In this document: one piece after another, positions 1 to 15,313 of the stretch
Layout of the letters: each line of letters begins with the position of its first letter
Numbering within the stretch: the stretch's first letter is position 1
Assembly (NCBI GenBank): GCA_040005235.1
Contig: JBDTZG010000090.1
Location: 1-16,630 of the forward strand
Length of the DNA: 16,630 nucleotides
Origin: Acidobacteriota bacterium
GTDB taxonomy: Bacteria; Acidobacteriota; Thermoanaerobaculia; Multivoradales; UBA5704
Reading direction: 5' to 3'
The notes under the pieces: model-generated
Database searches by the model: none
What the model was told of the DNA's origin: nothing
Seen by the model: the letters and a program-made list of their open reading frames with translations, nothing else
Program-made: the position numbers and the translations under genes

Positions 1-1484
1 GCATCGTCGATTACAACGAGTGCTTCTTCCTGAACGTCACGCTGACCAACGGCGGCACGATCGCGGCGACCGGGATCAACGCCGTCCTCACCACGACCGA
101 GCCCCAGGTGCAGATCCTCCAGGGTTCCTCGGCCTATCCGGACATCGCGGGCTCCGGCGGAACGGGCACCAATGCGACGCCTTTCAAGGTCCGCACCTCG
201 CCTACTTATCCGGCCGGCAAACCGATGAACCTGGTGCTGAACCTGACCACCGCCCAGGGGCCGCTCTCGATTCCGTTCACGATCGTGACGGCGGGTGGCG
301 TTCCGTCCTCCCTCGCGGTGGCCGGGCCGGTGGCGATTCCCGACAACGACGGAATCGGCGTCGCGATCACGATTCCGGTCGCCAGTTTCTCGTCCGTCCT
401 CTCGAAGGTCGCGGTTCGGGTGCGAATCACCCACACCTTCGACGGCGACCTCGTCCTTCGCCTGCGCGGCCCGGACAATACGGTCGTGCTCCTCGCCTAT
501 CAGGTCGGCGGCGCCGGAGCGGGTTTTGGCACCGATTGCCCCGCGGACGGCAACGACACCACGTTCGACGACCAGGCGGCGACCTCGATCCTCACCGGCG
601 CGGCGCCCTACATCGGCTCGTTCCGGCCGCAGTCTCCGCTCTCGGCTTTCGCCGGCAAATCCGGGGCTCAGGTCAACGGCAACTGGACTCTCGAAGTCGC
701 CGACTTGGGAGCCGCCGACATCGGCAACATCGAATGCGTCGGCCTGTTGTTGAACGGCGCCGCAGCGGGTCCGGGCTGCAACGCCCTGCCGTCGGCGATC
801 CCGGGCGGTCCGTACTCCGTGGGCGAGGGCGGCACGACGAGCCTCTCCGGCAGCGGTACGGATCTCGACGCCCAACCGGTCACCTTCACTTGGGATCTCG
901 ACGGAGACGCGATCTTCGGCGAGACCGGTGCCGGTGCCACCCGGGGTAACGAAACCGGTCCTGCTCCGACATTCTCGGCGGCCGGGCTGGACGGACCTTC
1001 GATGTTCGTCGTGACCTTGCGGGCTTCCGACGGAATCGGTTCGACCGACGCTCCGGTTTCGATCGCGATCCAGAACGTCAATCCTTCGGTCGTCGCGGGC
1101 GGTCCCTACAGCGTGGTACTGAACGGCACGGTCGGTTTGCTGGCCATCGGTACCGACCCCGCGGGCGCCGGCGATCCCCTCACCTACGTCTGGGATCTCG
1201 ACGGAGACGCGATCTTCGGCGAGACCGGCGGTGCGGCAACCCGAGGCAACGAAGTCGGTGCCAACCCCACCTTCAACGCGATCGGATTGCCGAACGGTGC
1301 GGTGGTTCCGATCAGCGTCCAGGTGACGGACGGTGACGGCGGATCTGCTTCCGCCACCGGTACGGTGACCGTGCAAGGTACGGTGCTCGACATTCCCACC
1401 TTGTCGGGGGTCGGCATTGCAATCTTGGCGATGCTCCTTGCGGGGGTGGCGTTCGCCCTCTCCCGGAAGCGCCGGCAGGTCTGA
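1..1484 (+). CDS. 5'-truncated secreted/surface protein: proprotein-convertase P-domain, two PKD/Ig-like repeats, C-terminal IPTL-CTERM sorting signal
   Basis: The frame is open from base 3 (IVDYNECFFLNVTLTNGG...), so the true start lies upstream of the window and the track's start at 108 is internal. P-domain signature: IPDND...V.VRITHTFDGDL.L.L.GPD...GNWTLEV.D....D.G. Two repeats of GGPYSV...WDLDGDAIFGETG..ATRGNE.G..PTF. The protein ends DIPTLSGVGIAILAMLLAGVAFALSRKRRQV (IPTL motif, TM helix, basic tail). Confidence 0.85.
   Translation, partial: IVDYNECFFLNVTLTNGGTIAATGINAVLTTTEPQVQILQGSSAYPDIAGSGGTGTNATPFKVRTSPTYPAGKPMNLVLNLTTAQGPLSIPFTIVTAGGVPSSLAVAGPVAIPDNDGIGVAITIPVASFSSVLSKVAVRVRITHTFDGDLVLRLRGPDNTVVLLAYQVGGAGAGFGTDCPADGNDTTFDDQAATSILTGAAPYIGSFRPQSPLSAFAGKSGAQVNGNWTLEVADLGAADIGNIECVGLLLNGAAAGPGCNALPSAIPGGPYSVGEGGTTSLSGSGTDLDAQPVTFTWDLDGDAIFGETGAGATRGNETGPAPTFSAAGLDGPSMFVVTLRASDGIGSTDAPVSIAIQNVNPSVVAGGPYSVVLNGTVGLLAIGTDPAGAGDPLTYVWDLDGDAIFGETGGAATRGNEVGANPTFNAIGLPNGAVVPISVQVTDGDGGSASATGTVTVQGTVLDIPTLSGVGIAILAMLLAGVAFALSRKRRQV
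891..1228 (+). repeat. Intragenic direct repeat (two PKD-like modules, 300-nt period)
   Basis: The 38-mer TGGGATCTCGACGGAGACGCGATCTTCGGCGAGACCGG is identical at 891-928 and 1191-1228. The flanks diverge but the encoded protein stays similar. Confidence 0.9.
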
Positions 1485-1498
1485 GGCACTGTGAAATG

Positions 1499-1538
1499 AA
1501 AAACCCGGGCGGATGGCAACATCCGCCCGGGTTTTTTT
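1499..1538. terminator. Bidirectional intrinsic terminator
   Basis: AAAAA-CCCGGGCGGATG-GCAA-CATCCGCCCGGG-TTTTTTT: perfect 12-bp stem, GNRA-type loop, T7 tract on + and T5 tract on -. It lies between the convergent stops at 1484 and 1562. Confidence 0.93.
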
Positions 1539-1561
1539 GTGTCCTCCGAACTAGCCCCGAA

Positions 1562-2938
1562 CTACGCCCGAACGAACAGCGCCTCCCGGACCACGGCCCG
1601 TCGAAGCTCGTCGGTTCCTCCAAATCCGAGGTCGCGCGCCGCACGTTCCAGCGCGCCCGGATCGGCGGGCACGGGCCGGCCAAGACGCTCTTCGAAAAAC
1701 CACCGCCAGAGCTCGGATAGCGACAGTCCGGTATCGGCGATTCCGGGTTTGGCGAAACCGCGAGCGGCAAGTGCCCGGGCTTTCGCTTCGGCGCGCTCTG
1801 CCAGCGGCGCGTAGGCGTGGCGGATGCGAAGATCGTCGCGCAGGGCGCCATCGAGCATCGGTTCGAGCAGCGGCAAAATCCGCTCGATGCGTGCCTGGTC
1901 CGCCGCCAGGCGGGCGAGACCGGAGGCATCGAGACGCTGCTTGGCAAGGAACGCGGCGAATTGGGTTTCCTCGGTCAGGCCGTGATCCCGACGAAATCGC
2001 GCGACCGCCTGGTCCCGGGCGGACTCGTCGAGCTTGAGCCCGCCGCGATCGGCAAGGGCGAGCGCCAGAAGTCGCGCCTGTGCGACGGATTGGAGGGCGG
2101 CATAGGTCGAGAGCCCTCCGAGCCGCAGCTCGTCGAGCGGATCGATCTCGGCGCCATCGCCCGCAGCGAGCGCGGTCCGCTGGTCGGCGGCGATTCGGCC
2201 CGCCTCCCAGGCCTCCGTGTGCTGAAAGAAAAAAGTCGCTTCAAAACGCCCCGGATGCTCGTGCCGATTCGCCGCCATCCGCCGCAGCATCGCGAGCGCG
2301 TCCAACTTCTTTTGATCGACTCGACCGGTCGGAAGCCAATCCGAGAGAGCCTCCAGCTCGGAGCCGGGAAGCCCGGCGCGGCGGGCCTGTTCGAGCACCA
2401 AGGCCAGCCCGCGCTCCGGGTAGAGCAGCGCCTTGGCAATCGCGACCAGCGCGCCGCGGGTCGGCTCGGCGATCACTCCGGCCGCCTCCGCCGCGGCGAA
2501 CGTTGCCCGCAGGTTGACCATCGCTTCGGAACCCGCGGCATAACCGGTCGCGGCGGGACCGTGGAACACGGTGACCTCGTCGTCGTCGGTCAACTCGCCG
2601 CGTCCGAAGGCGGCGTAGATTTCGCCCACGCCCACCATGCCGAACGGCGAGCACTCGACGGCGCGCAACGCACCCAGCGAGGCGGCGCCGAAGACATGGA
2701 CCCCTTGGTCGAGCGCCCAGAGGATCTCCTTGTGCCAAACCGAGGCGAGGCGGTCGAAATAGCCGTCGATGACTCCGATGCCCCAAGGGCGTTCGCGAGC
2801 CGCGAGATACAGGTCGCCCTGTGCCACCGGCGGTCGCCACGATGCGTCGGCCAGCTCTGGAACCTCGCGTCGGCCTTCATGGGCGATGAGCGTCGGGCCG
2901 GAAAAGACGACGATCGTTCGTGAGAGGGAAGTGTTCAT
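1562..2938 (-). CDS. tfuA: TfuA-like protein (458 aa), partner of thioamide-forming YcaO, with a ~195-aa helical C-terminal extension
   Basis: Start reassigned to ATG 2938 (SD GAGGAGGGG; ATGA overlap with the ycaO stop). TfuA motifs: VFSGPTL, PPVAQGDL, IGVIDGYF..SVWHKEILWAL, VFGAASLGALRAVE, GMVGVGEIY, DDDEV.V.H, SEAMVNLR, YPER. Confidence 0.92.
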   Translation of the reverse strand: MNTSLSRTIVVFSGPTLIAHEGRREVPELADASWRPPVAQGDLYLAARERPWGIGVIDGYFDRLASVWHKEILWALDQGVHVFGAASLGALRAVECSPFGMVGVGEIYAAFGRGELTDDDEVTVFHGPAATGYAAGSEAMVNLRATFAAAEAAGVIAEPTRGALVAIAKALLYPERGLALVLEQARRAGLPGSELEALSDWLPTGRVDQKKLDALAMLRRMAANRHEHPGRFEATFFFQHTEAWEAGRIAADQRTALAAGDGAEIDPLDELRLGGLSTYAALQSVAQARLLALALADRGGLKLDESARDQAVARFRRDHGLTEETQFAAFLAKQRLDASGLARLAADQARIERILPLLEPMLDGALRDDLRIRHAYAPLAERAEAKARALAARGFAKPGIADTGLSLSELWRWFFEERLGRPVPADPGALERAARDLGFGGTDELRRAVVREALFVRA

Positions 2939-4182
2939 CTCCCCTCCTCGGTTTTTGTCGCGGCATTTGCAGCCGCCGCGCGAGCTCGCGCGCCGGGAAA
3001 CCAACCGGGGATGTCGCGAGAGGTCTCCAAGCCCGGCACCACGATCCGAACGACCGGCAGATCGAGGCCTGGATGCGTCAGGTCGACGGCGATCACCTCG
3101 GGAAAGCCGGCATCCCTCAGTCGGCTGAGGAGCGCCGAGAGATCCTCTTCGAACGTCTCGGCGGCGAAATCCGGCGCGGCGTGATAGTCGCCAACCGGGG
3201 TCGCAAGAAGGACGCTCCGGCGCAACCGGTCGAGAGCGTCGGCGTCGCGCCACGCCTCGTACTTGCGCAGCGGCATGTCGTCCCGCGCTCCGGCGATCGT
3301 CGTGAGACGGCTTTGGGCCGCTTCGGTCAACGCCCGCAACAGGGCGACTCCCCGGCTCGGATGGCATCCCATCCCGCCGCCGGCGCCGCGAACTTGAAAC
3401 GGATCGGCCTCGCGGTCGAGCACCAGGGCGCGAAACGTCGGCACCCGCAGATCGGAGGTGATGTCCCACACGGCGACCGCCACCCCGGCCCGGGCGTAGA
3501 GATCGAGGACCTGGCGGCAGAGCGGATCGTCGATCGTGTCCAGGTCCACACGCGCTTCGTCCTCCGCCGCTTCGCCGCTCAGCTCGGAAAGGGTGTTGGC
3601 ATCCCGTTCGATCACCTCGCACAAGCCGTGACCGATCGCTTCGAGCGCGTGGTTGCCGGAGGCGAGGCCGTTCGACGAGAAGGCGAAGCAGCCGCTGCCG
3701 GGAGGCATCGGCCGGGTAGTGTCCATGTGGACCAGCTCGTAGGGAAGGAGGACCGGCTCACCGGTCGGCAGGTCGACTCCCTCGATCCAGAGTGTCTTCA
3801 GCTCATCGTGAAAGATTCCGGCGGTGGTGCGCGGCAGGCCGTCGAGGTTCGCGACCCGATGGGAAAAACGCAGCTGGTTATGGGTCGCCAGGCGGACCGG
3901 ACGATCGATCCGCTCGGCGTGCCAAAGCTCGATCGCCTCCATCAGGCCGGAAGCGCGAGCGGCGGCGAGATCGAGCCCTTTGCCCTGCGAGACCGCGAGA
4001 GATCGCGAATTCGGCCGGCAGACCATCACGACCGGCAGGCCGATGACGTCGAGACCGGTGACGTTGGCGACCCGGGTGATGCCGAAGATCGGCGCGAGCC
4101 CAGAGATCCGCTCGACCGTCGCTTGCGGATCGATCGTGCGGTGGGTCCCGCGCCGGAAGGATTTGAGGGTTGCTCCACTCAC
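2935..4182 (-). CDS. ycaO: YcaO-family ATP-dependent backbone-activating enzyme, TfuA-associated (thioamide-forming) type, 415 aa
   Basis: Motifs GTHRT..P..T, GITRVANVTGLD.IG.PV, SQGKG, SGLMEAIE.WHAE, the ATP/Mg-binding SSNGLASGN...EA..HGLCEVIERD, GMGCHP, ALLRALTEAAQSR...IAGARDD and C-terminal VVRIVVPGLE. There is no PxPxP azoline-type tail. GTG start without a clear SD. Confidence 0.95.
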   Translation of the reverse strand: MSGATLKSFRRGTHRTIDPQATVERISGLAPIFGITRVANVTGLDVIGLPVVMVCRPNSRSLAVSQGKGLDLAAARASGLMEAIELWHAERIDRPVRLATHNQLRFSHRVANLDGLPRTTAGIFHDELKTLWIEGVDLPTGEPVLLPYELVHMDTTRPMPPGSGCFAFSSNGLASGNHALEAIGHGLCEVIERDANTLSELSGEAAEDEARVDLDTIDDPLCRQVLDLYARAGVAVAVWDITSDLRVPTFRALVLDREADPFQVRGAGGGMGCHPSRGVALLRALTEAAQSRLTTIAGARDDMPLRKYEAWRDADALDRLRRSVLLATPVGDYHAAPDFAAETFEEDLSALLSRLRDAGFPEVIAVDLTHPGLDLPVVRIVVPGLETSRDIPGWFPGARARAAAANAATKTEEGR

Positions 4183-4227
4183 AGACGAATCATCACACGC
4201 CTGGAGGAAGCGACCCGCCGTCCCGGT

Positions 4228-4467
4228 CTACAGTTCCGGCAAATTGACCAGAGTACCCATGATGATCGCGGCGACCGCGCCGGCAGTCCTGGCTCTCTCC
4301 TCGGTCTCCCTGGTGATCTTGCCGACGACCGCTCCGGAAGCCGCCTTCTCTCTGGCGGCCACAGCGGTCCGATCACCAGCCTTTAGCTTCTCGATCTTGC
4401 CGGCCCCGCCGAGAGTAACCTTGTACACCACGCCTGAGTCGGTAACTACGATGAGCCTGTCGGCCAT
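4228..4467 (-). CDS. Small protein A3 (79 aa), putative YcaO/TfuA substrate or RiPP precursor
   Basis: ATG 4467 is preceded by GAGAGGGATTTAAA (the track start at 4584 is too long). Sequence: MADRLIVVTDSGVVYKVTLGGAGKIEKLKAGDRTAVAAREKAASGAVVGKITRETEERARTAGAVAAIIMGTLVNLPEL. Clear paralogue of the two upstream genes. The gene itself is well supported; the substrate role is inference. Confidence 0.85.
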   Translation of the reverse strand: MADRLIVVTDSGVVYKVTLGGAGKIEKLKAGDRTAVAAREKAASGAVVGKITRETEERARTAGAVAAIIMGTLVNLPEL

Positions 4468-4514
4468 TTTAAATCCCTCTCGGATCAAGTCCTGGTGCGT
4501 GCGCCGTTCGACTT

Positions 4515-4760
4515 CTAACCATCGAGCAAAGGCACCTTGACGAAGGTGCCCATGATCACCTTGGCGGTCGAGATCGTGGCGCAATTTTCGCCGGCATCCA
4601 TCAACTTTTGTACGGCGGCGACCGTACCGGCAACCGTCGTCGGTGAAATCGATTCGCCCGCGGTCGCACCCTGCGGCACCAACTCCACGACCTCACCGGG
4701 ATCCCCTAGGGTGATGCGATAAACCCTGCCGTCGTCGCCGACGATTACGATGGTGGACAT
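4515..4760 (-). CDS. Small protein A2 (81 aa), putative YcaO/TfuA substrate or RiPP precursor
   Basis: ATG 4760 is preceded by AGGAGGGTTTTGAA. Sequence: MSTIVIVGDDGRVYRITLGDPGEVVELVPQGATAGESISPTTVAGTVAAVQKLMDAGENCATISTAKVIMGTFVKVPLLDG. Shares the N- and C-terminal motifs with A1 and A3. Confidence 0.85.
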   Translation of the reverse strand: MSTIVIVGDDGRVYRITLGDPGEVVELVPQGATAGESISPTTVAGTVAAVQKLMDAGENCATISTAKVIMGTFVKVPLLDG

Positions 4761-4801
4761 TTCAAAACCCTCCTGGTTCGATTCCCTGCGAGTCTCGACG
4801 A

Positions 4802-5068
4802 TCAATACTTGGTGGTTCCGCCGTCGCCGATCAATGGCAAATTGACGAACGTGCCCATGATTGCGAACGCCTTCTCTCCTGACGCAGCGGCTGCCTTTTG
4901 CTCGCTCTCCGGATGGACGTCGGCGATCAACACCCCTTCGGCAGCCTTTCTCTTGGCGGCGATGGCGTTAGGATCGGTATCCGGAAGCTCGGTAGATGCA
5001 CTCGGATTTCCCAGCGTGACCTGGTACACCTTGCCGGATTCACTGACGATGAAGAGTGTGTCGGCCAT
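4802..5068 (-). CDS. Small protein A1 (88 aa), putative YcaO/TfuA substrate or RiPP precursor
   Basis: ATG 5068 is preceded by GGGAGGGCTTTTGAG. Sequence: MADTLFIVSESGKVYQVTLGNPSASTELPDTDPNAIAAKRKAAEGVLIADVHPESEQKAAAASGEKAFAIMGTFVNLPLIGDGGTTKY. Confidence 0.87.
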   Translation of the reverse strand: MADTLFIVSESGKVYQVTLGNPSASTELPDTDPNAIAAKRKAAEGVLIADVHPESEQKAAAASGEKAFAIMGTFVNLPLIGDGGTTKY

Positions 5069-5129
5069 CTCAAAAGCCCTCCCGATCGACTTCTAGTAAG
5101 TACGTTCAAAGTGCGGCATAACTCACTCG

Positions 5130-5158
5130 ACGGTAGCACAGGCTTGGGTACGCCTCAA
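5130..5158 (-). promoter_or_regulatory. Putative sigma70 promoter for A1-A2-A3-ycaO-tfuA
   Basis: Minus strand TTGAGG (5158-5153), 17-nt spacer, TACCGT (5135-5130), with an extended -10 TGn. It lies about 60 nt upstream of the A1 ATG in the only sizeable intergenic gap. Confidence 0.5.
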
Positions 5159-5224
5159 GATCAACAGGCTCAATGCTTTCAATGGCATTTAGCCATGCGG
5201 CGATGCGACAAGATCCGACGCGGC

Positions 5225-8200
5225 TCAGAGGCTCATCAAACCGAGCTCGGCGCGTTGCGCGAGCCCCGGCGCACCCTGGGCGCGCGAGACTTCGAGCGCC
5301 TCGGTGAAGAGCCACCGCGCCCGTTCCGGTTCGCCTGCGGCCAGCTCGGCTTCGAGGCAGAGAAGCTGCGCGCGCCAATAAAAGCGCGGTCCCAAAAGCT
5401 CGGCTAGCGCCCGGGCTTCGGCGAAAGCTCGTTCGGCGTCCTCCCGCCGGCCGAGGTAGATATAGGCGTCGATCAGGAGGGAGAGAAAGTAGATCTCCGA
5501 AAGCCGGGCGCCCGACGTGCGGTACGCGGCCAAGCCCTCCAACATGCGACGCAGGCCCTCTTCTCCGCGCTCCGGATCGTCGCTCTTGACCAGCGCCCAG
5601 CCGAGCTGGAGGTTGCCGAGCGCCACGGAGGAGAAACCCTTCTCGGTCGATAGCGCCAAGAGGTCTCCGGCCAGCTCCGCCACCTGCTCCGGTTCGCTGC
5701 GCAGCTGATGCACCCAGCCGGCCGAAGAGAGCGCGTCGGCCAGGCTGAAGGGGTGGGCGATCACGTCGCGGGCGGTGCGGATCGCCGAGGCGCAACGCTC
5801 CGCCGCTTCGTCGGGGCGCCCCAGGTGCCAAAGGGCGACTCCGGAGATCGCGAGCGTCGTCACTGCGACGTCCAATCCGGTGATGAAGGTCGGAGTCCGG
5901 TCGCGGGCCGGCGAATCGAGCGCCAGGCCGGCCTCGAACTCGGCGAGCGCAGAGTCGAACTCGCCAAGGAAAAGCTGGGGCATTCCGGCGCACAGATGGG
6001 CCTCGAACTGGAGCGCGCGGTCCTTCCGGCCGAGCGCGATCTCGTTCATCCGCCGCGCGAACTCCAGGGCGGTTTCAAACGAGCAGCGCACCAGATGGAA
6101 AGCCCAGAGGCCGCGGAGCACCCAGAAGAGTTGCGGCGCCTCTCCCACCTGGGTACATAGCTCGCGGGCCCGGTCGTAGTTCGCCTCGACCTCCGGCGCC
6201 GCGTAGCCGCGGGTGGCGATCAGGGCGGGGCCGAGCATCGTGCGCAGGTCCAGCTCGGCTCGGTCGCGCGGCGGCCCCGCAGGTAGCGACTCGCAGAGCT
6301 TGAGCGCGCGTTCGAGATGGCCGATCGCCTCCAGATTCGCCGAACGCTCGGTCGCGCGCCGGCCCGCCGAGAGCCAATAGGTGATCGCCCGCTCGGCGAT
6401 TCCGGCCTCGGACCAGTGCTGGGCGACCAGCTCGGGCCGCCCTTCGGCGAGGTCGGGGAACTTCTCCTCGATCGCCCGCGCGATCCGCGAGTGATACTGC
6501 TGGCGGGTGCTCTTGAGCAGCGACTCGTAGGCCGCGTCCTGAATCAACGCATGGCGGAAAGAATAGGTGATCGCCTCGGCCACCCCGCGCTTGTAGAGAA
6601 TTTCGGCGTCCACCAGCTGATCGAGGCCGCGCCGCAGCTCGGCTTCGGGCTGGCTCGAAACCGCGCGCATCATGTCGAAACTGAACTCGCGGCCGATCGC
6701 CGCAGCGAGTTGCACCAGCTCGCGCACCGAGGCGAGGCGGTCGAGGCGCGCCATCAGCGAGTCGTGCAGGGTCGCCGGAATCGCCAGCGGCGGCAGAGGC
6801 CCGTCCAGCTCGTAGCGGCCGTCGATCGGATGGAGCAGGCCGGAATCGAGCACCATCCGGGTCAGCTCCTCGACGAACAGCGGCACGCCGTCGGTCTTGT
6901 CGATCAATTGGCGCAGCACCTCGGGCGGCAACGGCCGGCCCTCGGTCCGTTCGAGGATCAGCTCTTCGATCTCTTCGTTGGTCAAACGATCGAGAGAGAT
7001 CTGGCTGGCATAGGCGCGGCCGGCCCACGGCAGCACCCTGTCGGGCCGAAGGGTGAGCAGGATCAGCAGCCGGGTGGTCGGCGCCTGGCTCACCAGCATG
7101 TCGAGCAGCTCCTGCGTCGACGGATCGACCCAGTGAAGATCTTCGATGAAGAAGACCACCGGCCCCTTTTCGGCCATCGCCAGCACCAACGCCACGAGGG
7201 TTTCGAGCGTCCGCTCCTTCTGGCGAGGGGGCGACAGGTCGAGCGGCGGGAAGCGGTCGGTGATCTGCAGGCCCAGCATCGAAGCGAGCAGGGGAATTTC
7301 TTCGCCGATCAAGCCGTACGGCCGCAGGCCCTTTTCGAGCCGGGCGATCGTGGCGTCGATCGACTCGTCCGCGCGGAGCCCGAACACCCCCTGAAGCAGC
7401 TCGACGACCGGCGCGAGCGCGCTATGGGTTTGATACGGCGAGCACCGGCCGTCGAGCCAGGTGCGGATACGCCCGTTCGCCTTGTCTCTCAGGTGCTGCA
7501 CCAGGCGGGACTTGCCGATCCCCGCCTCGCCGACCACCGCCACCACCTGGCCGCGTCCTTCGCAGGCCCGGTCGAGGCAGCGATCGAGCGCCACGGCATC
7601 GCCCGTGCGCCCGACCAGGGGCCGCAGCCCCTCTTTGCGCTGGACCTCGAACGGGCTCACGAAGCCGCGCCAGGCGATCACCCGGAAGACCTCGATCGGC
7701 TTGGTGATTCCCTTGAGCTCGCGGGATCCGAGCGACTCGCATTCGAACAGCCCGCGCAGCAACGGGTAGGTCTTGCCGCTGATCGCCACCGTTCCCGGCT
7801 CGGCGATCGCCTGGATGCGCGCCGCGATGTTCGAAACCTGGCCCACGACCAGGGTCTCGCGCGTGTCGACCACCGGGTTCGCGATCCCGCGGCCGGTATG
7901 GATGCCGACCCGCACCTGGAGTCCAACCCCGTGCTTCGCTTCGATTTGGGTGCTGAGAGCGGCCACCGCCGGAACGATGTCGAGCCCGGCGCGCACCGCC
8001 CGTTGCGGATCGTGCTCCAGCGCGGCCGGAAAGCCGAAATAGGCCATCAGGCCGTCGCCCAGAAGTTGCGCCACGTGGCCGCCGTAGCGTTCGACGGCCT
8101 CCGAGCAGACCCGCTGGTAGCTTTGGACGACCGCGAGCAACTCCTCCGGCTCGAGCCGGTCGGCGAGCGCCACCGACCCGACCAGATCGCAGAACAGGAC

Positions 8201-8458
8201 GGTGACCGTGCGCATCACCTCGGTGGCTACCGTGAAAGTCGAGGTGATCGACTCGACGGTGGTCGTCGGGAGCGAAGGGAAAACCGGCTCGGGGGCGCCG
8301 CCGAGCAGCGCTCCTCCGCAATAGCCGCAGAACCGAAGGGCGTAACCGGCCGGCAGCTCCGCCTTGCAGCTCGGGCAGGCAAACGGAAGAGCTGCCCGGC
8401 AATGGCCGCAGAACCGAAAGCCGGGAGGGTTGTCGTTCTGGCAGCTGGTGCAGCGCAT
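5225..8458 (-). CDS. Double zinc ribbon + class III adenylate/guanylate cyclase + AAA/STAND-type ATPase + TPR protein (1077 aa)
   Basis: Four CxxC pairs (CTSC, CGHC, CPSC, CGYC). Cyclase motifs TVLFCDLVGS, LLGDGLMAYFG, RVGIHTG, SNIAARIQ. Walker A GEAGIGKS, Walker B FFIEDLHWVD, then TDGVPLFVEE, IPATLHDSLMARLDRL, FRHALIQDAAY and C-terminal helical repeats. Confidence 0.92.
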   Translation of the reverse strand: MRCTSCQNDNPPGFRFCGHCRAALPFACPSCKAELPAGYALRFCGYCGGALLGGAPEPVFPSLPTTTVESITSTFTVATEVMRTVTVLFCDLVGSVALADRLEPEELLAVVQSYQRVCSEAVERYGGHVAQLLGDGLMAYFGFPAALEHDPQRAVRAGLDIVPAVAALSTQIEAKHGVGLQVRVGIHTGRGIANPVVDTRETLVVGQVSNIAARIQAIAEPGTVAISGKTYPLLRGLFECESLGSRELKGITKPIEVFRVIAWRGFVSPFEVQRKEGLRPLVGRTGDAVALDRCLDRACEGRGQVVAVVGEAGIGKSRLVQHLRDKANGRIRTWLDGRCSPYQTHSALAPVVELLQGVFGLRADESIDATIARLEKGLRPYGLIGEEIPLLASMLGLQITDRFPPLDLSPPRQKERTLETLVALVLAMAEKGPVVFFIEDLHWVDPSTQELLDMLVSQAPTTRLLILLTLRPDRVLPWAGRAYASQISLDRLTNEEIEELILERTEGRPLPPEVLRQLIDKTDGVPLFVEELTRMVLDSGLLHPIDGRYELDGPLPPLAIPATLHDSLMARLDRLASVRELVQLAAAIGREFSFDMMRAVSSQPEAELRRGLDQLVDAEILYKRGVAEAITYSFRHALIQDAAYESLLKSTRQQYHSRIARAIEEKFPDLAEGRPELVAQHWSEAGIAERAITYWLSAGRRATERSANLEAIGHLERALKLCESLPAGPPRDRAELDLRTMLGPALIATRGYAAPEVEANYDRARELCTQVGEAPQLFWVLRGLWAFHLVRCSFETALEFARRMNEIALGRKDRALQFEAHLCAGMPQLFLGEFDSALAEFEAGLALDSPARDRTPTFITGLDVAVTTLAISGVALWHLGRPDEAAERCASAIRTARDVIAHPFSLADALSSAGWVHQLRSEPEQVAELAGDLLALSTEKGFSSVALGNLQLGWALVKSDDPERGEEGLRRMLEGLAAYRTSGARLSEIYFLSLLIDAYIYLGRREDAERAFAEARALAELLGPRFYWRAQLLCLEAELAAGEPERARWLFTEALEVSRAQGAPGLAQRAELGLMSL

Positions 8459-10918: not shown

Positions 10919-11959
10919 TTACTGCACGTCGCCGGTGATCACGACTTCGAGCTTCGGAATTTTCTGGCTGTCGGTATGTAACACCAGGTTCGCGGTGAAG
11001 GGCCCCTTCGGCGCATCGGGCGAGAGGGTCAGGCGGATCATGTACTCCCGGCCGTCCTGAATCGCGTCGAACACCGTTTCGAGGCCCTTGCCGCTCATCG
11101 GGTTGTCGATCGAGGTGAGCTTGATGTCCTCGGTCGCGAAGTTGCGGACGTTGAGGGTCTTGGTCACCTTCTCTTTGACCACGACCTTGCCGAAGTCGCC
11201 GGCCGGCGGGGTGACCGCGACCACCGGGCGGACAAAACCGGAGATCGGGATCTGCACCAGCTTCTGCTTCGGGTGGGTGGTGTGAACCGTCAGATAGTCG
11301 GCCAGGCTGCCCACCGGAGCGGCGAAATTGTCGAGCGTCATCTCGATCTGCCACTGCTTGCCCTTGGCGTCGGGCAGGCGCTCGGTGTCGCTCGCCTGAT
11401 GGAACGTCGCCTTCAGGTACGGAAACGGCGAGACCACGTCCGTGACCGCGAAATCGGAGCCGTCCGGCGCCCAAATGCTTTGGATGATCACGCCCGCCTT
11501 CGCCTCGCCCTGCACCGTCAGGTAGCGCGCATAGCCGGGCTTGACCTGGATGTACGGCTCGACCTTCGCCTGGATGGTGAGCTGGATGCGCGGGTTGTCG
11601 GTGTCGTTGGTGTAGACCGAGATACCCTTGGAAATCGGGCCGTTGAACGTCGTGGTCTCGACCACCGCGTGGACCTTGCCGGTCTGGCCGGGTGCCACGC
11701 TCTTGTCGAACTGGGCGACCGTGCAGCCGCACCCCGGCTCGACGCGCTGGATCTCCAGCGTCGCCTGGCCCTCGTTCTTGATCAGAAAATCGTGGACGAC
11801 CTGCTCGCCCTTGGCGACCGTTCCGGCGTCGAAAGTCGCCTCGACGATGACCGCTTTCGGCTTGGTGGTCGGAACCGGGGTGTCGGCCCCTTTCGCCGCG
11901 GCGGCGAGCGGCAGAGCGAGGCACAGCGTCAAAATGGCGGTCTTGGTGCTTCGGTTCAT
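10919..11959 (-). CDS. Exported DUF1573-domain (Ig-like repeat) protein, 346 aa
   Basis: Signal peptide MNRSTKTAILTLCLALPLAAAAKGA. DUF1573 pattern FD.G.V..G..V.H.F..KN.G...L.I..V.PGCGCT......APG..G, followed by two further beta-sandwich segments. SD AGGAG. Confidence 0.85.
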   Translation of the reverse strand: MNRSTKTAILTLCLALPLAAAAKGADTPVPTTKPKAVIVEATFDAGTVAKGEQVVHDFLIKNEGQATLEIQRVEPGCGCTVAQFDKSVAPGQTGKVHAVVETTTFNGPISKGISVYTNDTDNPRIQLTIQAKVEPYIQVKPGYARYLTVQGEAKAGVIIQSIWAPDGSDFAVTDVVSPFPYLKATFHQASDTERLPDAKGKQWQIEMTLDNFAAPVGSLADYLTVHTTHPKQKLVQIPISGFVRPVVAVTPPAGDFGKVVVKEKVTKTLNVRNFATEDIKLTSIDNPMSGKGLETVFDAIQDGREYMIRLTLSPDAPKGPFTANLVLHTDSQKIPKLEVVITGDVQ

Positions 11960-14093: not shown

Positions 14094-14122
14094 TTGACCG
14101 GAGCGGCCGGGTGTTGTATCTT
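14094..14122 (+). promoter_or_regulatory. Putative sigma70 promoter of the mglBA operon
   Basis: TTGACC (14094-14099), 17-nt spacer, TATCTT (14117-14122), with an AT-rich tract upstream. It ends 27 nt before ATG 14150. Confidence 0.65.
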
Positions 14123-14149
14123 CCGAGCGATCCAATACGAGGTCACCCG

Positions 14150-14644
14150 ATGGGTTCAGCCGATTTCATCCTCTACGAAGAGGAATACGCGAGCTTGGAA
14201 GAGGCGCTCCGGCGTTTACGCCAGGAAGCCAACGCCAAAGCCGTCTTCCTGATCGACAAAAACGGCCAGCAAATCGCGGCCGCGGGGGAGATCGAGCAGT
14301 TCGACGCGACCTCGCTCGCCTCTCTCACCGCCGGCAACGTCGCAGCGACCGACGGTCTCGCCAAGCTGATCGGCGAGCGGGAGTTCTCGGTCCTGTTCCA
14401 CGAGGGGCAGCAAGACCACATCCACATCTCGATCGTCGCCAAGCGGGCGATCCTGGTCGTCATCTTCGACGAGCGGTCATCGCTCGGGCTGGTGCGGCTG
14501 CGGGTGAAGAGGGCGAGCGTCGATCTGGAGCGCATCTTCGAGACCATGCTGCAGAAGGGGGAGCGAGGGGATTCTTCGACCGGCCCCGCGAGCCCATTTT
14601 CCGAGATTACCGACGAGGACATCGACGCTCTGTTCAGCGAGTGA
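14150..14644 (+). CDS. mglB: MglB, Roadblock/LC7-domain GAP of MglA (164 aa)
   Basis: ATG 14150 with SD GAGGT. Motifs YEEE, ANAK.VFL.DKNGQ, TSLASLTAGNVAA..GLAKLIGE.EF...FHEG, SLGLVRLR and C-terminal SPF.E..D.DID.LFSE are closely like Myxococcus MglB. It lies directly before mglA. Confidence 0.95.
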   Translation: MGSADFILYEEEYASLEEALRRLRQEANAKAVFLIDKNGQQIAAAGEIEQFDATSLASLTAGNVAATDGLAKLIGEREFSVLFHEGQQDHIHISIVAKRAILVVIFDERSSLGLVRLRVKRASVDLERIFETMLQKGERGDSSTGPASPFSEITDEDIDALFSE

Positions 14645-14728
14645 CGGCTGGGGTTTGCGCCCGCGACGTAACTTCTCTCGCTCTCGCATCCTTCAGCCGC
14701 CCAAATCGCCGACCGAGGTTGTACGACC

Positions 14729-15313
14729 ATGACGTTCATCAACTACGCCAGCAAGGAGATCAACTGCAAGATCGTCTATTACGGCCCCGGGCTCGGGGGC
14801 AAGACGACCAACTTGCAGTATATCTACAATAAAACCTCGCCCGATTCGAAGGGCAAGATGATCTCGCTCGCGACCGAGGCGGATCGCACCCTGTTCTTCG
14901 ATTTCCTGCCGCTCGATCTCGGCAGCATCCGGGGCTTCACCACCCGATTCCATCTCTATACGGTGCCGGGCCAGGTGTTCTACGACGCCAGCCGTAAATT
15001 GATCCTGAAGGGTGTGGACGGCGTGGTCTTCGTGGCCGACAGCCAGGAGGAGCGGATGGAGGCGAACATCGAATCGATCCGCAACCTCGAGGCGAACCTG
15101 AAAGAGCATGGCTACGATCTGCCGACCATTCCCTACGCGCTCCAATTCAACAAGCGGGACCTGCCCGGCGCGTTGGCGGTCGACCAGATGTATCGGGTGC
15201 TGAATTACAAGCGCGAGCCGACTTTCGAGGCGGTGGCGACCACCGGAATCGGCGTCTTCGACACTTTGAAATCGGTCGCCAAGCAAATCTTGATCGAGCT
15301 GCGCAAACGATAG
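14729..15313 (+). CDS. mglA: MglA, small Ras-like GTPase (194 aa)
   Basis: FINY...[20 protein letters not shown] (G1), [10 protein letters not shown] (intrinsic Arg finger/G2), YTVPGQVFY (G3), NKRDLP (G4), AVA.TG.GVFDTLK. Confidence 0.97.

Follow-up and report, generated by a model that had tools for sequence, protein, structure and literature searches.

The window analyzed here is a 16,630-nt stretch of contig JBDTZG010000090.1 (assembly GCA_040005235.1) from a soil acidobacterium of the class Thermoanaerobaculia. On its (−) strand it carries five genes in one direction, A1, A2, A3, ycaO and tfuA, the first three of which encode small paralogous proteins. We consider it probable, on sequence grounds, that A1–A3 are leader-plus-core substrates which the YcaO–TfuA pair would thioamidate in the C-terminal motif IMGTFVNLP. 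That the three proteins are substrates of the adjacent enzymes had been proposed earlier from the letters of the sequence (hereafter, the original prediction), and the proposal now finds support in the linkage of the genes, in the anatomy of the proteins and in their distant relatives; we infer the substrate role itself, thioamidation as the chemistry, its site, the sulfur source and the fate of the product. The features on which the argument turns are the following.

5130..5190, (−) strand: conserved upstream block, from the sequence and an eight-locus alignment in which its columns are invariant
4802..5068, (−) strand: A1, 88 aa, candidate substrate, with a putative hairpin leader at residues 4–19 and IMGTFVNLP at residues 70–78 (nt 4861–4835)
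4515..4760, (−) strand: A2, 81 aa, A1 paralogue, with IMGTFVKVP at nt 4556–4530
4228..4467, (−) strand: A3, 79 aa, A1 paralogue, with IMGTLVNLP at nt 4263–4237
2935..4182, (−) strand: ycaO, 415 aa, GTG start, ATP-dependent backbone-amide-activating enzyme (PF02624)
1562..2938, (−) strand: tfuA, whole gene, 458 aa (open reading frame and PF07812)
2249..2938, (−) strand: tfuA core, residues 1 to ~230 (PF07812, NF033432, Foldseek match to 6XP8)
1565..2236, (−) strand: tfuA C-terminal extension, residues ~235–458, predicted all-helical from residue 279
1499..1531, (−) strand: intrinsic terminator with a 12-bp stem, a 4-nt loop and T5, from folding energy and sequence

Open reading frame (ORF) calls and their translations agree with the layout described in the original prediction, the five co-oriented genes being separated by gaps of 41, 47 and 45 nt from A1 to ycaO and joined by an ATGA overlap at the ycaO/tfuA junction, and a GGAGG-like site lies 7–9 nt 5' of the ATG of each A gene. 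A2 and A3 share 37% and 46% identity with A1, and 20 columns are invariant among the three; both shared motifs quoted earlier, one near each end of the protein, are present in A1, A2 and A3 and hold in the alignment. In an alignment of 32 family members the residues M1, G12, I70, M71, T73 and V75 are invariant and L5, V8, V14, Y15, V17, T18, L19 and G20, around the N-terminal hairpin, nearly so, with the invariant residues concentrated at both ends of the protein. Position 72 is G, C or A (Cys in 7/32 aligned members, Ala in 1/32). In the AlphaFold2 (AF2) model of A1, residues 1–45 form three strands and one helix with a predicted local distance difference test score (pLDDT) of ~70–78; the score falls below 50 at residues 47–52, 54–72 and 79–88, and everything past residue 45, the conserved motif included, is modeled at low confidence. 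We count this leader/core anatomy in favor of substrates because the paralogues stand in tandem, conservation lies at both ends, and a conserved motif in a tail predicted to be disordered is set against a segment, residues 1–45, predicted to be folded.

To judge from their codons, the A genes are real coding genes under purifying selection: GC3, the G+C content of third codon positions, exceeds GC2, that of second positions, and the pairwise ratio of nonsynonymous to synonymous divergence (dN/dS) of orthologues is 0.11–0.73 for the A1, A2 and A3 types and 0.18–0.85 for a shorter paralogue type, values taken from ungapped comparison, in which dN comes out somewhat too high. None of the three reached the cut-off of any Pfam or NCBIfam family, including Nif11, NHLP and other precursor families of RiPPs (peptides made on the ribosome and modified after translation), or matched a PDB sequence, and their description as an unrecognized family therefore stands. 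The fold search with A1 among 48,161 chains gave a best Z of 3.5, which is not meaningful, and the ESM Atlas returned scores of at most 0.84, both for A1 and for a Myxococcus protein of the kind described below. Identity as a ThiS/MoaD-type carrier found no support either, as A1–A3 have no ThiS match in Pfam and no C-terminal Gly-Gly, ending in ...TTKY, ...LLDG and ...LPEL, respectively.

The enzymes are of better known families. YcaO matches PF02624 at 2.4e-83 over model positions 1–325 of 325 (Pfam), indicating a complete ATP-utilizing domain, and TIGR00702 with 196.9 bits, over the cut-off of 75.65 (NCBIfam). TfuA matches PF07812 at 1.2e-42 over residues 58–176 (Pfam). For both enzymes the top NCBIfam models are those of the pair that thioamidates a glycine of McrA, namely TIGR03266 for YcaO (226 bits, under the 365-bit equivalog cut-off) and NF033432 for TfuA (181.6 bits, under the 235.2-bit equivalog cut-off), whereas the S12-accessory YcaO model gives just 28 bits on the window YcaO. 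The nearest solved YcaO in a PDB sequence search is MJ1094 (6PE3, E 1.8e-38), and in Foldseek the AF2 model of TfuA matches the TfuA of M. acetivorans (6XP8) with E 1.1e-12 and a template modeling (TM) score of 0.84 on the target, over the first ~224 residues. The assignment of YcaO and TfuA to the thioamide-forming type, part of the original prediction, is supported by these sequence and structure comparisons. YcaO and TfuA each occur exactly once in the genome, which also has three genes of the ThiS family, located elsewhere than in the A operon. TfuA has been described as hydrolyzing thiocarboxylated carriers of the ThiS type, and the YcaO mechanism as ATP-dependent (accessible text of PMC13063428).

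On the favored reading, an N-terminal beta-hairpin-plus-helix module of ~45 residues would act as the recognition (leader) element, followed by a flexible linker and a short C-terminal core, I-M-[G/C/A]-T-[F/L]-V-[N/K]-[L/V]-[P/S]. With ATP, YcaO would phosphorylate a backbone amide oxygen in the core, and TfuA would provide sulfide, the probable donor being a thiocarboxylated carrier of the ThiS type whose gene lies outside the operon, elsewhere in the genome; sulfur would then replace oxygen, leaving a backbone thioamide. The operon would be transcribed from the conserved upstream promoter region, ending at the hairpin past tfuA. As the modified site we would guess the carbonyl of Met71 or a residue next to it, because of the conservation of this position and of the parallel with the ribosomal protein uL16, a small folded protein which E. 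coli YcaO thioamidates at Met82, a Met followed by Gly (tryptic tripeptide MGK; PMC13063428, accessible text). The likeness between a thioamidated Met before Gly in uL16 and a core with I-M and then mostly G in the A family is a resemblance only.

The A family is small. Of 5.8 billion proteins searched, 28 belong to it at a threshold of E 0.01, a number that includes the three of the window, and among 1.84 billion representatives 11 matches were found at E up to 0.001, seven of them small full-length relatives; four matches to long proteins (P0034, P0036, P0037 and P0038; E 1.9e-6 to 6.7e-4) were rejected as chance matches on repeat proteins, in which Pfam shows PKD and other repeats. When 401 genomes of the class were scanned, strong A-family matches appeared in three, all of one Thermoanaerobaculia genus, and five weak matches inside ORFs of 466–2213 aa (E 0.003–0.007) were set aside as chance. 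Carriers are Thermoanaerobaculia metagenome-assembled genomes (MAGs) and one Holophagales MAG, and otherwise metagenome contigs. After duplicates had been merged (L015=L017, L016=L020) the scans of genomes and metagenomes left 8 distinct related loci, and in all seven with downstream sequence two or three diverged A genes in tandem are followed directly by ycaO and a long tfuA; the eighth (L019) stops at a contig edge. Had A homologues mostly occurred without ycaO and tfuA, this would have counted against the original prediction by its own terms, but the pair is present in 7/7 of the loci that could be checked. YcaO is 81–97% identical across these loci, and because the loci are such close kin their synteny, taken alone, is weak evidence.

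In some of these loci the second gene (L018 6346–6561; L022 954–1169; L023 6223–6438; L015 6194–6397) is a shorter, fast-evolving paralogue of 67–71 aa, which ends in ...AAVIMVKL, ...AAIIMAKLP or ...GIMFTFVRLPPLK and retains just the hairpin and the hydrophobic-Met element. As even these shorter proteins end in this way, the constant element of the family is a hydrophobic residue followed by Met.

More distant evidence comes from the relatives of YcaO. The next ones are 68% and 63% identical to the window enzyme and are followed by a very large clade at 54–62%, which includes many Myxococcota (the search returned 7,946 proteins of the YcaO clade at E up to 1e-30); 28 loci around YcaO relatives outside the genus were taken for comparison. 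In eight Myxococcota loci, whose YcaO is 54–59% identical to that of the window, the gene directly upstream of ycaO specifies a protein of ~190–270 aa. When hhalign compares the C-terminal half of this protein with the A family, it gives a probability of 58.6% and a P of 9.5e-5 over 77 collinear columns, pairing the hairpins as ADTLIIVSDSGKVY with SDLLIYAPDGxVY and, further on, IMGTFVNLP with ITCFLLNLNS. The score of this alignment, 29.3, was reached by 0/200 column-shuffled profiles (mean 10.2, sd 2.2, max 18.3), and the hidden Markov model (HMM) of the Myxococcota proteins weakly matches one A paralogue (E 0.0023). At the position equivalent to 72, all 7 of the Myxococcota proteins that were aligned have Cys. 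A protein upstream in the same way in Sorangium (L048) was not accepted as a member, its likeness being by eye only (C-terminal INCYVLNLS) and the Myxococcota HMM giving no match at E up to 1.

In one Chloroflexia, one Acidobacteriaceae and one Dormibacterota locus the ORF directly upstream of ycaO opens with a comparable hairpin, x-I-R-G-A-D-G-x-L-[YW]. Between this IRGADG group and the Myxococcota group hhalign gives P 0.0089 and 0.0057 over ~25 columns on the hairpin. The motif IRGADG[SR]L[YW], used by itself to scan the collection of genomes, yielded 15 loci, 3 from Chloroflexia, 2 from Acidobacteriota and 10 from Azospirillum or other Proteobacteria, and in all 13 with downstream sequence ycaO and tfuA immediately follow, the other two stopping at the contig edge after the small ORF. 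The cores of the hairpin proteins are diverse, with ~15 copies of xVMVxG in one, three copies of AG[AT]FMPV in another and five copies of AGFT followed by TFVNMG in a third; the Azospirillum proteins have a single ...ARIMITPGA tail. A conserved leader with a variable and often repeated core, as these sequences suggest, is typical of RiPP precursors. No distant relative reached the cut-off of a curated family in Pfam or NCBIfam, just as for A1–A3. The earlier view of the A proteins as an orphan family is thus kept as regards curated families and has to be given up as regards kinship, given the distant relatives found 5' of orthologous ycaO–tfuA in Myxococcota and the similar hairpin motif in other phyla.

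Two of the hairpin loci deserve mention for themselves. In an Acidobacteriota MAG, L071 4450–5085 encodes a 211-aa hairpin protein with ~15 tandem xVMVxG units directly 5' of ycaO and a short tfuA, a striking multi-core candidate. In the Chloroflexia locus L052 (3504–3902, = L066) the precursor-like gene occurs in two copies, and the L052 copy nearest ycaO runs in another frame after ~residue 65 (frameshift or assembly error), with the AGFT repeats lost from the long ORF.

As a second correction to the original prediction, the window TfuA is a long form, with a predicted helical C-terminal extension of ~220 aa for which Pfam and NCBIfam gave no family match and the PDB no match, Foldseek, run with the whole model, matching only the N-terminal TfuA domain. 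Such long proteins, alignable to ~residue 455, are not peculiar to this organism and also accompany related YcaO enzymes at loci of Myxococcota, Terriglobia, Dormibacterota and Rhodobacterales. Azospirillum and one Acidobacteriota hairpin-motif locus carry a short TfuA of ~250 aa, and the extension would therefore be dispensable for an IRGADG-type leader.

Several results weigh against A1–A3 being thioamidated leader-plus-core substrates. No further tailoring enzyme, protease or exporter was found by Pfam scans among the neighboring genes of the window; the absence of other tailoring genes agrees with the minimal locus described in the original prediction, and without a leader protease or exporter there a classical secreted RiPP is unsupported. 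The N-terminal 45 residues are predicted to be folded, which makes stable partners possible rather than leaders, and both enzymes fall short of the NCBIfam equivalog cut-offs given above. Searched with the HMM of the A family, the 28 ycaO–tfuA loci outside the genus gave no match even when E values up to 10 were allowed. By sequence, the IRGADG group is weakly related to the A family (hhalign P 0.29 and 0.045, over ~25 columns on the hairpin), and the enrichment of hairpin matches just upstream of ycaO (10/14) is post hoc because the regular expressions were written after examples had been seen. Moreover, 15/26 related ycaO–tfuA loci (L034–L059, among which L037 has no upstream sequence) have no hairpin protein detectable by regular expression or HMM, and in three (L035 5566–7623, L050 1952–3979 and L049 390–2567) a B12-binding-type radical SAM protein of ~680–725 aa, identified by eye, lies directly 5' of ycaO–tfuA in place of the hairpin protein; enzymes of this clade are therefore not tied to an A-type substrate family.

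These observations bear on three other ways of explaining the locus. The N-terminal module, predicted to fold, and the lack of protease and exporter would suit A1–A3 as accessory proteins, i.e., adaptors, chaperones, sulfur-relay or regulatory subunits, the substrate being encoded elsewhere as with McrA and uL16; the only two thioamidated proteins characterized, as far as the accessible text of PMC13063428 goes, are modified in trans, and related ycaO–tfuA pairs do exist without an A-like gene. We nonetheless regard an accessory role as rather unlikely. Subunits are rarely retained as two or three diverged tandem copies, the strongest conservation falls on a short motif in a predicted disordered tail, and the multi-copy core repeats of the hairpin proteins of other phyla fit substrates and not adaptors, nor do A1–A3 have the Gly-Gly terminus of a ThiS-type carrier. 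A comparable YcaO, moreover, is present in only 9/401 genomes of the phylum, the window's own counted, and for this reason a housekeeping target is unlikely. That A1–A3 are unrelated small proteins merely co-transcribed with ycaO–tfuA, the linkage reflecting recent common descent in one genus, we hold to be highly improbable. It would account for all strong A-family loci coming from one narrow lineage with nearly the same YcaO, where synteny is not independent, but it does not predict the profile match to Myxococcota proteins in the same position beside a much more divergent YcaO, the landing of the leader-motif scan on ycaO–tfuA loci in other phyla, or the purifying selection on the A genes.

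If A1–A3 are substrates, the chemistry might not be, or not only be, thioamidation, and cyclodehydration of a Cys at position 72 to a thiazoline, or for instance amidine formation, could take its place. The Cys found at this position in a minority of the A family and throughout the aligned Myxococcota proteins would be in keeping with this, and azolines, amidines and thioamides are all made by YcaO through one mechanism, according to the accessible text of PMC13063428. Against it, every locus has a TfuA whose translation is coupled, A1–A3 of the window have Gly at position 72 and no Cys in the motif, the SagD-type cyclodehydratase model TIGR03604 gives YcaO 122.2 bits, under its cut-off of 219.25, and the Pfam scan of the neighbors found no E1-like or RiPP recognition element (RRE) partner among the window genes, so that we judge such a chemistry improbable and retain thioamidation of the core as the preferred reading.

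A wider reading can be offered only tentatively, and we think it doubtful as a whole. A1–A3 might belong to a superfamily spanning Thermoanaerobaculia, Myxococcota, Chloroflexia, Terriglobia, Dormibacterota and Azospirillum, united by one beta-hairpin recognition element and by Met- or Gly-centered cores, whose members would be dedicated substrates of one YcaO–TfuA clade; in minimal loci with neither protease nor exporter the product might then be an intact intracellular thioamidated mini-protein, perhaps under the control of the upstream kinase or cyclase of the STAND type (signal transduction ATPases with numerous domains). If this were true, McrA and uL16 would be joined by these mini-proteins as a third kind of thioamidated protein, and the product would not be a secreted antibiotic.

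Among characterized systems, the archaeal McrA-thioglycine pair of M. acetivorans and M. jannaschii (MJ1094) is the closest, in its NCBIfam models as in the structures 6PE3 and 6XP8, and there too ycaO and tfuA tightly adjoin (PMC5589413, accessible text). The window enzymes nevertheless score under both equivalog cut-offs, the archaeal substrate is a large enzyme encoded elsewhere whereas the window locus has its candidate substrates in the operon, and the solved archaeal TfuA has 217 residues, the window TfuA bearing the additional C-terminal domain. E. coli YcaO is said to recognize the tertiary structure of uL16, a mode of recognition that would suit the folded leader module of the A family; unlike the window locus, the E. 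coli system lacks both a TfuA and a neighboring small ORF, as far as the accessible text describes it (PMC13063428).

Thioamitide clusters hold further tailoring enzymes beside YcaO–TfuA, and the window differs from them in having no further tailoring genes and in coming from a different phylum. The repeated cores of the hairpin-bearing relatives are reminiscent of the thiovarsolin repeat precursor. In the actinobacterial thioamitides of the thioviridamide type and in the thiovarsolins, as at the window locus, YcaO–TfuA acts on an adjacent gene-encoded precursor (PMC8120280; PMC6511847; accessible text of both), but A1–A3 match no curated precursor family and have a single core with a long, partly folded leader. 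Malit et al. (2021) reported 613 families of TfuA-related clusters together with 797 families of putative precursors, a few from Acidobacteria (PMC8120280). The window locus is of the same general kind as those clusters, and to judge from the accessible part of that survey uncharacterized precursor families beside YcaO–TfuA are common; the Myxococcota or Azospirillum peptides may already be cataloged there.

The motif strings IRGADG, MGTFVN, CFLLNLN and GADGRLY occur in none of the papers covered by a text search, and among the matches listed for YcaO/TfuA none named Azospirillum; the publications that join myxobacteria, YcaO and TfuA are, judging by their titles, reviews or surveys. What is new here is the A family, its profile-level link to the Myxococcota family in the same position, a cross-phylum leader motif that finds YcaO–TfuA loci, and the uncharacterized long TfuA. 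Backbone thioamides are very rare; to our knowledge, only a few thioamidated peptide families have been characterized and most bacterial YcaO–TfuA pairs have no known substrate. The locus offers a three-component test system of substrate, YcaO and TfuA, with nothing else needed, and the leader motif, which has yielded more candidate substrates in several phyla, could help to find substrates for some of the enzymes in a large orphan clade. In practical terms the locus is a good lead for natural-product research or enzymology, with no new principle.

As for the borders of the operon, the strong terminator of the original prediction is confirmed by folding. A GC-rich 12-bp stem at 1531–1504, followed by TTTTT, lies 31 nt past the tfuA stop and folds with −31.7 kcal/mol (z −7.16), a stability reached by 0/200 shuffles, and an A-run on the opposite side of the hairpin makes it usable by a convergent gene of the (+) strand as well. 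At the other end, a 156-nt region 5' of A1 is strongly conserved across 8/8 aligned loci, and within it the block 5190–5130 contains a candidate promoter formed by TTGAGG (5158–5153), a 17-nt spacer and TGc-TACCGT (5138–5130), whose −10 hexamer agrees with the consensus at just 3/6 positions. A consensus scan of 1350–5350 returned no promoters and no terminators, missing the terminator hairpin; because the promoter scan was empty, the function of the block is one that we only infer. The promoter suggested earlier thus gains the conservation of its block in eight loci but, with the empty scan and the poor −10 hexamer, remains a candidate. A perfect 5-bp inverted repeat, AATGC (5189–5185) and GCATT (5176–5172) separated by 8 nt, lies in the invariant block upstream of the candidate promoter, and 5172–5189 is possibly an operator site. 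G+C dips to ~0.60–0.61 across the A genes and the upstream region (window 4001–5500) from 0.65–0.70 on the flanks, and GC3 is 0.70–0.76 in the A genes versus 0.78–0.81 in ycaO and tfuA.

Around the operon Pfam identifies a protein that combines zinc-ribbon, cyclase, AAA_16 and TPR domains, a TPR-bearing Ser/Thr kinase and a secreted protein with a P domain. A defense system was considered and rejected, PADLOC giving no match for A1–A3, YcaO or TfuA and matching the neighbors with generic cyclase and kinase models only. In several phyla a large AAA_16 and/or TPR signaling protein is encoded just 5' of the small-protein/ycaO/tfuA module (window 5225–8458, (−) strand; L041 39–3239; L047 31–1920; L052 8–1954; L048 184–3189; L046 2866–3003), with a cyclase domain here, and a Ser/Thr kinase in Myxococcota and in an Acidobacteriaceae MAG; at the Dormibacterota locus its tail is of the LuxR type. 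This protein may be a regulator of the cluster, though such proteins are abundant in these genomes.

Further observations concern the remainder of the window. At 3–1484 on the (+) strand a secreted protein, truncated and containing a P domain of the proprotein-convertase type, carries at its C-terminus ...IPTLSG..., a hydrophobic helix and RKRRQV, which resembles a sorting signal, and it partially matches the model of myxosortase-dependent M36 peptidases with 52 bits, far under the cut-off. At 14111–15313, also on the (+) strand, a Roadblock/LC7 protein, which matches MglB weakly (80.9 bits vs. a cut-off of 200), is followed by a 194-aa protein that by eye resembles a small Ras-like GTPase, with no Pfam or NCBIfam match at 1e-5, and the two may form an MglB/MglA-like pair. 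Finally, the DUF1573 protein encoded at 10919–11959 on the (−) strand matches the OS_HP2 family (seleno)protein domain with 120 bits, over the cut-off of 100 (NCBIfam).

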